Of a stretch of 64,000 nucleotides of DNA, positions 55,845 to 58,948 are shown piece after piece. The notes under the pieces are model-generated. The model saw nothing but the letters and a program-made list of their open reading frames with translations. It had not been told where the DNA came from and ran no database searches. The stretch's first letter is position 1, and each line of letters starts with the position of its first letter. This DNA is from Methylacidimicrobium fagopyrum (GTDB lineage: Bacteria > Verrucomicrobiota > Verrucomicrobiia > Limisphaerales > UBA11358): positions 798-64,797 of the forward strand of contig JAMFSJ010000061.1 in assembly GCA_026225255.1 (NCBI GenBank). Direction: 5' to 3'. A program made the position numbers and the translations under genes.

Positions 55845-56344
55845 TGACTACCCCTGCTCCTTATAGTGAAGCGGCCGAGAATGAATTGGTGATTGTCGGC
55901 GAATATCGGCAAAGCGGCCGGAAAATTAAAATGCATGCGACCGCCGCTGGCGCATTGCAAAATTTAATGATTCAAGCCCGTGCTGTTGGCATCACGATCA
56001 TTCCGATCTCTGGTTTTCGCGCAGTAGAGTATCAAGCGTCACTTTTTCAAAAGGCAGTCATGAAACATGGTTCGGAAGAAGCTGCTGCGAGGTGGGTCGC
56101 ACGACCGGGAAGTTCGGAACATCATACGGGTCTAGCGATTGATCTTGGCGATGAAAAAAAACCAGATTGTGACGTGGAGCAATCTTTTGAAGCAACTTCG
56201 TCATTTCACTGGTTGGAAATAAACGCTTCACGATTTGGTTTTGAATTGTCATTTCCACGAAACAATCAACGTGGCATCAACTACGAACCTTGGCACTGGC
56301 GGTTTATCGGGACGCCTGAAGCCAAACAGATTTTCCAAACATGA
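55844..56344 (+). CDS. M15B D-Ala-D-Ala carboxypeptidase (VanY-like)
   Basis: SGFR, ARPGSSEHHTGLAID, YEPWHWRF. Confidence 0.88.
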   Translation: MTTPAPYSEAAENELVIVGEYRQSGRKIKMHATAAGALQNLMIQARAVGITIIPISGFRAVEYQASLFQKAVMKHGSEEAAARWVARPGSSEHHTGLAIDLGDEKKPDCDVEQSFEATSSFHWLEINASRFGFELSFPRNNQRGINYEPWHWRFIGTPEAKQIFQT

Positions 56345-56404
56345 TTCCCCGCGAAATTCTCAAAAGAATCCGGCAGATCGAACTGCGCACGAACCGCATC
56401 GTGA
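56341..56404 (+). repeat. DUF58 5'-end copy 1 (opens a 34-aa leader ORF ending at 56445)
   Basis: MIPREILKRIRQIELRTNRIV; 5 mismatches versus 57992-58055. Confidence 0.9.
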
Positions 56405-56449
56405 TCCGAATCGTCTCGCCGCCGCCAATGCAAAACGCACATTGATACC

Positions 56450-57283
56450 ATGAGCAAACCCAAGAAATCCACCATTGAAGTCCAAGGCACGGCCATCGCC
56501 GTCCTTTCCTACAAGGACGAGGATTTCATTTCGCTCACGGATATGCTCCAAGCCAAGGACGGCGATTTTTTTATCTCCGACTGGCTGCGCAACCGGAATA
56601 CCGTGGAGTTCCTTGGCGTTTGGGAATCAATCTACAACCCACATTTTAATTATGGCGAATTCGCCATAATTAAAAGCCAGGCGGGACTGAACAGTTACAA
56701 GATCAGCGTCAAGGAATGGGTGGAAAAGACCAAGGCCATCGGCTTGAAAGCCGCGGCAGGCCGGTATGGCGGCACGTTTGCCCATAAAGACATCGCTTTT
56801 GAGTTCGGCATGTGGATCAGCGCGGAATTCAAAATCTATCTCATCAAGGAATTCCAGCGGCTCAAGGAGGACGAAAACCGCCGACTCTCGCTGGCATGGA
56901 ATCTCAACCGGACATTGTCCAAACTGAATTACCGCATCCACACCGATGCGGTGAAAGCGCACCTGATTCCGTCCGAAGTCACATCCGCGCAGGCCGCGAT
57001 CACTTATGCGACCGAAGCTGATCTGCTCAATGTGGCGCTCTTTGGTCACACCGCCCGCCAATGGCGTGAGGCCAATCCTAAACTAGATGGAAATGTCCGC
57101 GACCACGCCGGCATCGAGCAGTTGCTGGTTCTCGCCAACATGGAAGGCATGAATGCCGAATTCATTCACATGGGATTGGCGCAAGGCGAACGATTGAAGC
57201 GGCTCAATCAAATTGCCATCCGTCAGATGCAGGTTTTGACGGCATCAAATCTGAAATCTTTACCGGGCGCGAAAGCGGAATAA
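56450..57283 (+). CDS. KilA-N domain DNA-binding protein
   Basis: DFISLTDM, WLRNRNTVEFLGVWE, GRYGGTFAHKDIAFEFGMWIS, LSKLNYRIHTDAVK. Confidence 0.88.
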   Translation: MSKPKKSTIEVQGTAIAVLSYKDEDFISLTDMLQAKDGDFFISDWLRNRNTVEFLGVWESIYNPHFNYGEFAIIKSQAGLNSYKISVKEWVEKTKAIGLKAAAGRYGGTFAHKDIAFEFGMWISAEFKIYLIKEFQRLKEDENRRLSLAWNLNRTLSKLNYRIHTDAVKAHLIPSEVTSAQAAITYATEADLLNVALFGHTARQWREANPKLDGNVRDHAGIEQLLVLANMEGMNAEFIHMGLAQGERLKRLNQIAIRQMQVLTASNLKSLPGAKAE

Positions 57284-57290
57284 TTTACTC

Positions 57291-57371
57291 ATGATCCCCC
57301 GCGAAATTCTCAAAAAAATCCGGCAGATCGAGCTGCGCACGAATCGCATCGTGACGGAGTCGCTCGCGGGC
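57291..57371 (+). repeat. DUF58 5'-end copy 2
   Basis: MIPREILKKIRQIELRTNRIVTESLAG; 4 mismatches in 81 bp versus 57992-58072. Confidence 0.9.
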
Positions 57372-57374
57372 AGC

Positions 57375-57680
57375 TCATTTCAGCCGTCGCCTCAGCTCCG
57401 TCGGACTCCGCGCGCCATGGAAAATGGAAACCACAATCACCATGGGCGAATTTTCGAGGATGGTGAAGTAGATGGAATACGGCCAATCCAGCATTTTGAT
57501 CTTTTGAGTGGTTGGCCCGGCAAATGGAAATCTCTCGTGGTCTTTGGTGGCTTCGGAAAGCGTGGCGTGGACTTCGCGGGCAAATCTTTGGCCGACACCA
57601 TCGGTCTGCAAATCATACCACGCAATCGCCTCGTGGAATTCCGTCTCGGCCTCGGCTTGGAAGGCGACTTGAAAACTCAT
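57375..57680 (-). CDS. RelE/ParE-family toxin
   Basis: EAETEFHEAIAWY, WPYSIYF, VVSIFHGARSP. Confidence 0.85.
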   Translation of the reverse strand: MSFQVAFQAEAETEFHEAIAWYDLQTDGVGQRFAREVHATLSEATKDHERFPFAGPTTQKIKMLDWPYSIYFTILENSPMVIVVSIFHGARSPTELRRRLK

Positions 57681-57898
57681 TTTTTGGCGCGATACCGCTT
57701 TTCAATATCGGCCATGACATCTTCAAGTGAACGGCAGCGTTCCGGATGCGCCCGCGCTTCAGCGGCACGACGTTCAAGCTCCGCGATCTGTTCCGGCGTG
57801 AGTTCCGGGTCGAATTCATCGCGGAGATGCGCGAAGACTTCATATTGGTCCTCGAATGGAAGTTTGTGGATTTGCTCCAAAACTTGGCTTGCACTCAT
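57677..57898 (-). CDS. Addiction-module antitoxin
   Basis: LTPEQIAELERR...SLEDV; ATGA overlap with the toxin. Confidence 0.8.
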   Translation of the reverse strand: MSASQVLEQIHKLPFEDQYEVFAHLRDEFDPELTPEQIAELERRAAEARAHPERCRSLEDVMADIEKRYRAKK

Positions 57899-57991
57899 GG
57901 CGGCAATTTACTCCTTTCGCTTGGTTACGCAAGCGGGGTTTTCCGCACGGGTAGATTCATCATTCAACCGTCACCATTCATCCTTTCCCAC

Positions 57992-58948
57992 ATGATCCCC
58001 CGCGAAATTCTCAAAAAAATCCGGCAGATTGAGCTGCGCACGAATCGCATCGTGACCGAAACGCTCGCGGGCCAATATCATTCCGTCTTCAAGGGGCAAG
58101 GCATGAACTTTGACGAAGTGCGTGAATATCAGCCCGGCGATGACGTGCGCGCGATTGATTGGAACGTCACGGCGCGGATGAATCATCCGTTCATCAAAAA
58201 ATTTGTCGAAGAACGCGAACTCACGCTCATGCTCATTGTGGACGTTAGCGGCTCGGGACTGTTCGGTTCGCGCGATCAATCCAAACGCGAACTCGCGGCG
58301 GAGATCGCTTCCGTATTGGCGTTCTCGGCGATTCGCAATAATGACAAGGTCGGCTTGATTCTTTTCAGCGATGAAGTGGAAAAATATATTCCGCCGCGCA
58401 AAGGTCGCAGCCACGTGTTGCGCGTCATCCGCGAAGTTTTATTTTTTGAACCAAAACGGCGCGGAACCGATCTCAATATCGCATTGGAATTTTTGATACG
58501 GGTGCAAACGCACAAGGCCATCACGGTGGTCATCTCGGATTTTATCGGTTCGCCCGCAGCGTTGCGGCGTCCGGGCGGCCAGCGGATGCAACCGCAGATG
58601 ATGTTGCTCGAATCGCTGGCGCAGGCATCGTTCTCGATGTTGCGCCAAGCGAATCGCAAACATGATTTGGTGGCCGTGCAAGTGACGGATCCGTGCGAAT
58701 TGGAATTGCCGGATCTCGGGCGCCTGACGTTTCAAGACGCGGAAACGGGCGAGATCGTCGAGGTTAATACGAGCGACGAACGCAAACGAAAAGCGTTTGC
58801 CGAAAGGCAGGCCAAATCGCAGGAAGATTTGGCGCGACTGTTCCGGCGTGCGGGCATTGACGCGATCCAGTTACGCACCGACCAGCCTTACGGCGTGACC
58901 CTTGGCCGTTTTTTTGAGACACGTAAAAAACGGAGATTGAGAGGCTGA
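57992..58948 (+). CDS. DUF58 domain protein (MoxR partner)
   Basis: SVFKGQGMNFDEVREYQPGDDVRAIDWNVTAR, DVSGS, ISDF. Confidence 0.93.
   Translation: MIPREILKKIRQIELRTNRIVTETLAGQYHSVFKGQGMNFDEVREYQPGDDVRAIDWNVTARMNHPFIKKFVEERELTLMLIVDVSGSGLFGSRDQSKRELAAEIASVLAFSAIRNNDKVGLILFSDEVEKYIPPRKGRSHVLRVIREVLFFEPKRRGTDLNIALEFLIRVQTHKAITVVISDFIGSPAALRRPGGQRMQPQMMLLESLAQASFSMLRQANRKHDLVAVQVTDPCELELPDLGRLTFQDAETGEIVEVNTSDERKRKAFAERQAKSQEDLARLFRRAGIDAIQLRTDQPYGVTLGRFFETRKKRRLRG

Follow-up and report, generated by a model that had tools for sequence, protein, structure and literature searches.

Integron arrays collect small cassettes, mostly promoterless or self-promoted, at one site, and toxin–antitoxin (TA) pairs are frequent among them and often inversely oriented; the attC sites at the cassette ends are imperfect inverted repeats that form single-strand hairpins and carry RYYYAAC...GTTRRRY boxes. 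Other mobile elements exploit the ends of conserved genes. e14 and phage 21, at the icd 3' end, and tRNA-targeting islands replace the gene end, and are integrase-driven and large. In flexible genomic islands, a hypervariable segment is exchanged by homologous recombination between conserved flanking genes. The locus described here lies in a 64,000-nt stretch of Methylacidimicrobium fagopyrum contig JAMFSJ010000061.1 (hereafter the window, to which all positions refer; the assembly comprises 3.9 Mb in 79 contigs and is 86% complete), in which the 5' end of a DUF58 gene downstream of moxR occurs in three direct copies with cargo genes between them. TA cassettes are reported to stabilise sedentary chromosomal integrons (PMC11023631), and dusA elements are described as islands in the 5' end of dusA that supply a new upstream region, restore the reading frame and can be tandem; they span tens of kb and carry their own tyrosine integrase, a directionality factor and a 21-bp imperfect core repeat (PMC8409611).

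The copies of the DUF58 start, all on the plus strand, are located at 56341–56404 (copy 1, 64 nt), 57291–57371 (copy 2, 81 nt) and from 57992 onward (copy 3). Reported in a preliminary description of this DNA, they were recovered again by alignment, as repeat family D1 and by pattern search: a 38-nt pattern allowing up to three mismatches gave three matches in the window and none in 100 shuffles, and a search of the whole 3.9-Mb assembly returned no further copy. Copy 1 differs from copy 3 at 5 of 64 nt and copy 2 at 4 of 81 nt, and the earlier count of nine substitutions, two of them altering the peptide (K9R and T24S), was reproduced. Each cassette has a truncated DUF58 start on its left, running from the ATG to about +63 or +81, and the next start on its right. 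The last start in each array belongs to the working DUF58 gene, as had been proposed, and the older copies are retained as starts of open reading frames (ORFs).

Stop and start codons are linked without a break across the locus, from moxR through a VanY-type gene, a leader ORF, a KilA-N gene and a bridging ORF to DUF58. The upstream anchor, moxR (54855–55844, plus strand; Pfam AAA_3, E = 3.8e-66), encodes an AAA_3 ATPase. Its stop codon is overlapped by the start of the VanY-type peptidase gene (55841–56344, plus strand; Pfam VanY, E = 5e-42), whose TGA in turn overlaps the ATG of copy 1. Copy 1 opens a 34-codon leader ORF (56341–56445), and the KilA-N domain gene (PF04383; 56450–57283, plus strand; E = 2.2e-21) begins 4 nt past the leader stop and ends 7 nt ahead of copy 2. 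From copy 2, a bridging ORF of 234 codons (57291–57995, plus strand) reads antisense through a TA pair and stops at a TGA that shares bases with the start codon of the intact DUF58 gene (ATGA). The pair consists of a ParE-family toxin gene (57375–57680, minus strand), whose stop codon is 3 nt from the end of copy 2, and an antitoxin gene (Unstab_antitox, PF09720; 57677–57898, minus strand; 27.0 bits against a cut-off of 23.3) that overlaps the toxin gene by 4 nt. Positions 57899–57991 (minus strand) comprise a leader of about 50 nt, conserved ahead of the antitoxin start codon at every target, and then tandem heptamers that directly adjoin the ATG of DUF58. The intact DUF58 gene (57992–58948, plus strand; Pfam DUF58, E = 3e-81), whose first 81 nt constitute copy 3, is followed by BatA and BatB according to Pfam. 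The earlier cargo calls, a KilA-N gene and an antisense TA pair, hold by Pfam, the toxin itself scoring below the Pfam cut-off (ParE_toxin, E = 1.3e-3, 19.7 bits against 23).

The relatives compared are metagenome-assembled genomes (MAGs) of Verrucomicrobia subdivision 3, of Pedosphaera or Limisphaerales type. Of 163 genomes in the same family-level group, 146 have a match to the start peptide of 27 residues, in many cases with more than one match per contig. In the main set, formed by the best place in each of 80 genomes taken in table order, one start copy was found in 41 loci, two in 35 and three in 4, so that 39 loci have two or three copies. A replication set of 67 further loci, none of them in the main set, has at least two copies in 16. 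Same-contig start pairs are also present in other families of the order; the observation is confirmed and extends across a whole bacterial order. moxR orthologs with 89–95% amino acid identity border the hotspot in 70 of the 80 related loci, and in these 70 the moxR stop and the functional ATG are 74 to 4126 nt apart (median 1418), with a gap of at most 160 nt in just nine. VanY genes were found in 13 related loci, and a degenerate start copy precedes VanY in three of them (L068, L109 and L110).

The breakpoints are nearly constant. When upstream copies are aligned with the intact copy of the same genome, the homology of 43 out of 45 begins no more than 3 nt from the ATG, and the right edges cluster at 81–85 nt or at about 62–69 nt (+81 to +85 and about +63 to +69). 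The shorter edges were at first taken as independent junctions, and this was revised: several are 81-nt copies split by insertions resembling repetitive extragenic palindromic (REP) elements, with the remainder of the copy located just ahead of the toxin stop. In loci L055 (2080–2683) and L088, REP-like hairpin-rich blocks of about 400–500 nt lie inside defunct start copies at about +66, and these inserts come with a duplication of about 14 nt of the flanking start sequence. Short cassettes of 341–392 nt (L087, L105 and L113) hold only REP-like elements, and their frame is still open. The bias toward synonymous change, inferred earlier from the window, holds in part: the non-synonymous share of differences is 0.43 in upstream copies (n = 42), between the 0.14 of functional copies and the 0.75 expected at random. 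The upstream and the intact copy are identical in 17% of the 81-nt class, versus 2.5% between genomes.

The preliminary description had proposed variable cargo in relatives as a test of its cassette model, and such variation was found across the related loci. The commonest unit is an antisense one of about 0.6 kb, composed of the leader of about 50 nt, the antitoxin and the ParE toxin; of the 80 loci, 42 contain the antitoxin cluster and 36 the toxin cluster. Among 32 homologous pairs, 29 toxins match ParE_toxin and all 32 antitoxins match Unstab_antitox (E ≤ 0.01), and judged by sequence the pair is an ordinary system of the ParE/PF09720 type. Other cargo includes DUF5069, an aspartyl-protease-like protein, a serine hydrolase, two restriction-modification systems, PD-(D/E)XK and HNH nucleases, a PIN/DUF5615 toxin, DUF4160/DUF2442, Imm33-like and CdiI immunity proteins, an ECF sigma factor, and ankyrin, Sel1 and TPR proteins. 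The hotspot resembles flexible genomic islands in having a hypervariable segment between conserved genes and in its defence and conflict cargo (restriction-modification, nucleases, immunity proteins). However, flexible islands normally lack a duplication of the flanking start and lie outside translationally coupled operons.

The TA genes are far more diverged than their hosts, with median identities of 41% for the toxin and 46% for the antitoxin, and their identity is not correlated with that of moxR across 29 loci (r = -0.03 for the toxin and -0.10 for the antitoxin). Genomes with 92%-identical moxR genes carry TA pairs that are just 29–50% identical. On a moxR tree of 64 loci, the status of having at least two copies needs 20 changes, versus a mean of 21.3 for shuffled labels. 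The entropy of the TA genes at codon positions 1, 2 and 3 is 1.00, 0.81 and 1.48 for the toxin and 0.88, 0.63 and 1.40 for the antitoxin; being highest at position 3, it indicates purifying selection on the minus-strand TA proteins. In locus L083 (oriented positions 8891–9048), between moxR and a single intact start, a fragment was found that holds start positions of about 55–81 and about 40 nt of a toxin 3' end, and this scar is evidence of cassette loss by deletion. Comparison of the loci shows that the cassettes are modular, bounded by gene-end repeats and rapidly turned over.

The displaced starts are tied to a second regularity. In 40 of 45 cassettes the frame from the upstream start is stop-free and terminates where its stop codon overlaps the following start (ATGA); the other two frames contain about eight and six stops on average. 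Start-to-start spacing is 2 mod 3 in 42 of the 45 cassettes (33 of 36 distinct lengths), and in the replication set the frame is open in 14 of 17 cassettes and the spacing is 2 mod 3 in 15 of 17. The antisense bridging design is present in 32 of 32 TA cassettes, whereas cargo in sense orientation is either fused or closely coupled to the old start. The spacing argument is partly weakened because indels in the TA genes must be multiples of three anyway, and the non-coding parts were therefore tested separately: in the 32 TA cassettes they contain no stop in 1,865 frame-0 codons, versus 48 and 39 stops in the other frames. When the TA genes are shuffled synonymously, a cassette keeps its frame open with a mean probability of 0.40, and 32 of 32 were observed to be open. 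At three other targets, the bridging phase of antisense-in-operon cassettes is free of stops in 4 of 4, whereas the same TA family after uvrB or at other loci, which require no read-through, has 1–3 stops in that phase in 7 of 8. Since the minus-strand TA genes are under protein-level selection, the plus-strand frame is kept open and not kept meaningful. The direction of this evidence is unambiguous, and it shows that the open bridging frame is selected. The open frame may keep ribosomes on the operon mRNA, avert polarity and preserve the coupling to DUF58 and the bat genes. A terminator and promoter scan of 54600–61400 gave counts close to those of shuffles, with nothing notable within the cassettes.

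A second bridging example lies downstream in the same operon, where a 262-codon ORF (60493–61281, plus strand) connects batA and batB. Its GTG overlaps the batA stop (GTGA), it crosses an antisense 23S_rRNA_IVP gene (60688–61041), and it ends in an ATGA overlap with batB. The IVP insert is flanked by 182-nt direct repeats (60502–60683 and 61090–61271, 87% identical), each bounded by inverted heptamer arrays, with a central part unique to the batA/batB locus. Other IVP genes in this genome (contigs C18 and C60) are in sense orientation, between inverted heptamer arrays. Antisense TA pairs also occur between livH and livM (L204 and L200), bridged by ORFs of 226 and 411 codons with overlapping stop and start codons, and no flanking repeats were detected around these two inserts. 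The inserts at batA|batB and livH|livM are independent parallels of stitched translation.

The artificial stacking of strain variants of the DUF58 start during assembly, which had been named as a possible refutation, is barely credible as an explanation. A public sequencing run that contains 96% of the words of the stretch was available as contigs only, which lose rare variants. Its zero-difference contigs cover 55631–56673, 56646–57319 and 57306–58020 at a flat depth of 11–13 and span every junction except the 38-nt word common to copies 2 and 3, the sole place where they break; no joint at the cassettes was seen in this run. Such breaks, and the many MAG contigs that end within the repeats, are what an artefact might produce. 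The same architecture is however present on contigs of 0.5–2.3 Mb in other genomes (e.g., L052, L104, L072 and L046), in assemblies of 4–20 contigs, and the frame and spacing rules are kept over 62 cassettes, which chimeras would not follow. Many MAG contigs stop exactly inside duplicated starts (e.g., G067:C443, G004:C81 and G019:C31); contig ends inside repeats show that short-read assemblies are fragmented there, and copy numbers from draft MAGs are consequently lower bounds. Two other runs, which hold small shares of the words of the stretch, yielded at 88% likeness joints from 55840 to 56341, from 55844 to 57287/57289, from 56403 to 57283 and from 57416 to 57991. These joints probably come from related organisms with other cargo and are no more than consistent with modular boundaries.

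The same TA unit is found at other gene ends. Antitoxin homologs are present in 51 of 163 genomes at 75 places, about three quarters of which are at the DUF58 hotspot by coordinates. After uvrB (L197, L198, L199, L202 and L211), the TA pair is co-oriented with uvrB, and copies of roughly the last 100 nt of uvrB flank it in L198, L199, L202 and L211, with lengths of 93–104 nt in the last three and three copies in L198. In L197 an orphan copy of the uvrB end was not found, and the TA pair is tandemly duplicated there. A search with the uvrB tail found same-contig duplicates in just 6 of the 163 genomes. The third target is a paralogous moxR/DUF58 operon (L205 and L210), where the paralog's own start is duplicated over 68–69 nt, bridging ORFs are present, and the start spacings of 713, 824 and 1022 nt are all 2 mod 3. 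L210 has exactly the order of the window: start, KilA-N, start, antisense TA pair, start. In addition, three copies of the moxR2 3' end surround a ParE_like pair and a PIN gene. At a locus unrelated to these (L203 and L209), a degenerate remnant of the DUF58 start stands right after the toxin stop of TA cassettes. In both DUF58 paralogs the repeat ends just past a shared RTNR[IL]V-coding motif.

All TA cassettes have the common leader of about 50 nt, probably promoter-like, ahead of the antitoxin ATG, and the sequence outside it is target-specific. The layout runs from the gene terminus through a target-specific spacer of about 10–50 nt, the leader, the antitoxin and the toxin to a gap of 3–10 nt and the repeat. 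With type II TA systems of the ParE/PF09720 type, the unit shares two small overlapping genes, the antitoxin first, and purifying selection on both; such systems are not known to be embedded in an operon with a maintained antisense frame and gene-end repeats, and searches of the literature gave no such case. As in e14 and phage 21, a substitute gene end is carried and the differences between displaced and working ends are mostly synonymous, and the uvrB 3'-end cassettes match that layout exactly; unlike those prophages and tRNA islands, the cassettes are minimal and lack an integrase.

The KilA-N proteins of the window and L210 are 74% identical, whereas identity between the host proteins is 58% for moxR and 47% for DUF58, which implies that the cassette has moved between the two sites. 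An ancient vertical duplication, in which gene conversion homogenised the repeats while the cargo diverged in place with no mobility, is therefore difficult to reconcile with the KilA-N genes, far more conserved than their two host operons. Some cassette types are widespread, and within-genome repeats are sometimes identical, consistent with gene conversion; yet the absence of phylogenetic signal on the moxR tree, the lack of correlation between cargo and host identity and the diversity of the cargo make such an origin very improbable.

Variable small cassettes at one site across relatives, a repeat between cassettes and frequent TA pairs are shared with integrons, but there is no IntI, attI, attC or R''/R' box here, and the repeat is a conserved coding sequence and not a structured site. 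The boundaries read C|ATGAT and ...GGGC| and lack GTT boxes. A hairpin or attC-like structure was considered and rejected, as the repeat DNA folds no better than shuffles (z = -0.6 to -1.2). The cassette model of the preliminary description was largely right about structure, with modular units, near-constant breakpoints and varied cargo, while its integron-like mechanism survives as an analogy only. Absent from it were VanY as an additional insert, the read-through frame and the sites at the paralogous DUF58 start, the uvrB 3' end and livH|livM. The same genome has an array at C78:7387–11638 of six repeats of about 110 nt with attC-type boxes (GCCTAAC ... GTTAGGC) and ORFs between them; these sites are quite different from the DUF58 repeats. 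A PF00589 search found no Phage_integrase gene on that contig, and the array may be an attC cluster without integrase.

With dusA elements (PMC8409611), the cassettes share the targeting of a conserved gene 5' end, the restored frame, gene-5' repeats at both ends and tandem arrangement; they differ in their size of 0.3–1.5 kb, the lack of a recombinase, repeats of 63–85 nt and the retention of the displaced start as the start of an open frame. Gene-end direct repeats with a restored working gene, as in integrase-borne islands, were found, and an adjoining integrase was seen in just one case among 50 large cargo ORFs. The cassettes could in principle be decayed remnants of integrase-bearing islands in the DUF58 5' end, with the repeats as old attL and attR and the TA pair retained because its deletion is lethal. 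That dusA islands target a gene 5' end, restore the frame and sit in tandem (PMC8409611) gives this idea a precedent, the deleted-cassette scar in L083 fits it, and locus L064 has a 427-aa Phage_integrase gene about 2.1 kb from the DUF58 ATG. However, only one start copy is present in L064, and moxR of that genome lies beside core genes on a different contig; integrases are otherwise absent, from 146 of 147 loci in which the larger ORFs were scanned. The compact layout, with the toxin stop 3–10 nt from the repeat and the leader of about 50 nt, is repeated in 32 cassettes and across three targets, which random decay would not reproduce. We regard a decayed-island origin as improbable.

A link between the L064 integrase and the site was examined and rejected, as just one of its 85 homologs adjoins a DUF58 start. 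In L064 (G011:C58) this gene and one with an ART/ADP-ribosyltransferase domain lie 1–3.5 kb upstream of the DUF58 start. In genomes G011 (L064) and G107 (L079, with moxR on L195), moxR is located on another contig than DUF58, next to core genes, and no start copy follows it; the separate contigs point to a large insertion or rearrangement at the hotspot.

The earlier remark that no recombinase lies nearby was borne out, in the window and across the related loci, apart from the L064 integrase and a Y1 transposase in L077, the only recombinases among 50 large cargo ORFs scanned from the 80 loci. No transposase was found in the window cassettes by Pfam, and no integrase or transposase in the window region; in the whole assembly a PF00589 search found only two Phage_integrase genes, on contigs C1 and C59, none on the window contig. 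No terminal inverted repeats were found around the cassettes, and the repeats of 63–104 nt compare with the 2–15 bp duplications typical of transposons and insertion sequences.

Taking these data together, we give about even odds to the following explanation as a whole: the moxR|DUF58 interval is a recombination hotspot for small accessory or selfish cassettes that are stitched into translation and move with gene-end arms. Comparison of the loci shows that the operon tolerates the inserts because of this stitching: the old start opens a stop-free frame across the cassette, up to the ATGA overlap with the next start. Ribosomes would stay on the operon mRNA, and Rho-type polarity would be avoided with coupling preserved. 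TA addiction would oppose loss through recombination between the repeats. A cassette with its start fragment would integrate, excise and be exchanged by host homologous recombination within the conserved start, through Campbell-type events and allelic exchange via the moxR and DUF58 flanks, and rare illegitimate events would create new arms at two other gene ends, the 3' end of uvrB and the start of the DUF58 paralog. For the movement itself, by a gene-end arm and host homologous recombination, we put the chance slightly short of even. Repeats of 63–104 nt are long enough for RecA, no recombinase is linked, some repeat pairs are identical, and in L203 and L209 a start remnant has moved along with its TA pair.

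Several points weigh against this reading. The KilA-N cassette occupies the equivalent paralogous position with the paralog's own start as repeats, although the hosts are only 47–58% identical; the TA family at uvrB has target-specific repeats and the same compact topology; and the repeat edges fall exactly at an ATG or stop codon. All three are more readily explained by a site-specific or target-duplicating enzyme than by homologous recombination alone. Synonymous-site conservation is 0.755 in the first 81 nt and 0.744 in the next 105 nt, and being no more conserved than what follows, the start carries no mark of a special substrate for recombination. Neither an excised circle nor an empty site was seen in the 96% run, whose contigs drop rare variants. 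The anti-polarity role of the open frame is deduced from sequence; related cassettes are not independent samples, and simple probabilities therefore overstate the significance of the frame; and the moxR tree is a quick gene tree, and poor resolution in a tree would also yield shuffle-like counts.

A dedicated enzyme encoded in trans might instead move the cassettes, either as a site-specific recombinase with its core inside the gene end (attI-type logic) or as a staggered-cut integrase. Staggered cuts 60–100 nt apart followed by gap repair would duplicate the gene end, as CRISPR repeats duplicate on spacer uptake. In addition to the KilA-N pair and the sharp edges, with some repeat pairs identical, the constant TA-centred topology, the occurrence of one TA family at the 5' ends of DUF58 and its paralog and at the 3' end of uvrB, and the common end of the repeat just after the RTNR[IL]V-coding motif in both paralogs speak for such an enzyme. 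On the other hand, no candidate was found: neither of the two Phage_integrase genes of the 86%-complete assembly is on the window contig, and 84 of the 85 homologs of the L064 integrase in the family lie elsewhere than at a DUF58 start. The repeat has no significant hairpin, and its short inverted repeats are disrupted by synonymous variants; no repeats could be detected at the livH|livM inserts; and we know of no transposase with target duplications of 60–100 nt. We judge an enzyme of this kind, the main alternative, possible but rather unlikely.

In the full-text literature searched, neither duplicated starts flanking moxR/DUF58 cassettes nor bridging frames were found described; the rule of the bridging frame and the use of several gene ends as targets are new. 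It is tentatively proposed, with some doubt, that the cassettes of the hotspot constitute an undescribed class of miniature mobile cassettes in Verrucomicrobia that use conserved gene termini as attachment sites, form integron-like arrays without an integron integrase, move through host recombination or a trans-acting enzyme, and carry a selected antisense bridging frame that makes their insertion into an operon seamless for translation.

Several other repeats were observed in this genome. Tandem arrays of heptanucleotides, with 3–6 units and a sequence that varies from array to array, stand just upstream of many start codons; those in the window are at 57950–57990, 60510–60545, 60655–60690, 61090–61120 and 61230–61270. 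A genome scan of both strands returned 358 arrays (about 179 sites if each was seen twice), 80 of which have an ORF of at least 80 codons within the next 40 nt. The native moxR–DUF58 spacer is an inverted pair of heptamer arrays around a centre of about 35 nt. A self-BLAST of the genome gave 105 nearby direct-repeat pairs, among which the start-duplication type was seen only at the DUF58 locus and in the IVP repeats; the remaining direct-repeat arrays are PEP-CTERM paralogs and the attC-like array. The former, at C10:41268–46470, are tandem paralogs that end in near-identical PEP-CTERM-like tails, giving direct repeats of 80–126 nt. Upstream of moxR, a 45-nt inverted repeat pair (54554–54598 and 54698–54742) is 73% complementary, and one of its arms has a sub-threshold match to the Acido-Lenti-1 small RNA (24.2 bits against a gathering score of 37, E = 0.033). 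The search of 54000–62000 for known RNA families gave just two sub-threshold matches, both away from the repeats.

In practice, annotation will take the bridging ORFs of 230–280 codons for proteins, and assemblies break at the duplicated starts. If the explanation favoured here is true, selfish genes can live inside operons without breaking them, by duplicating the next start and keeping an open frame that hands the ribosomes on, and the locus would provide a clear example from nature of an antisense frame selected for nothing but ribosome transit. It would also be a cassette-array hotspot without an integron integrase, with a bearing on how defence and conflict genes are stockpiled and exchanged, and, for a phylum in which genetics hardly exists, would offer a testable way into polarity and translational coupling.

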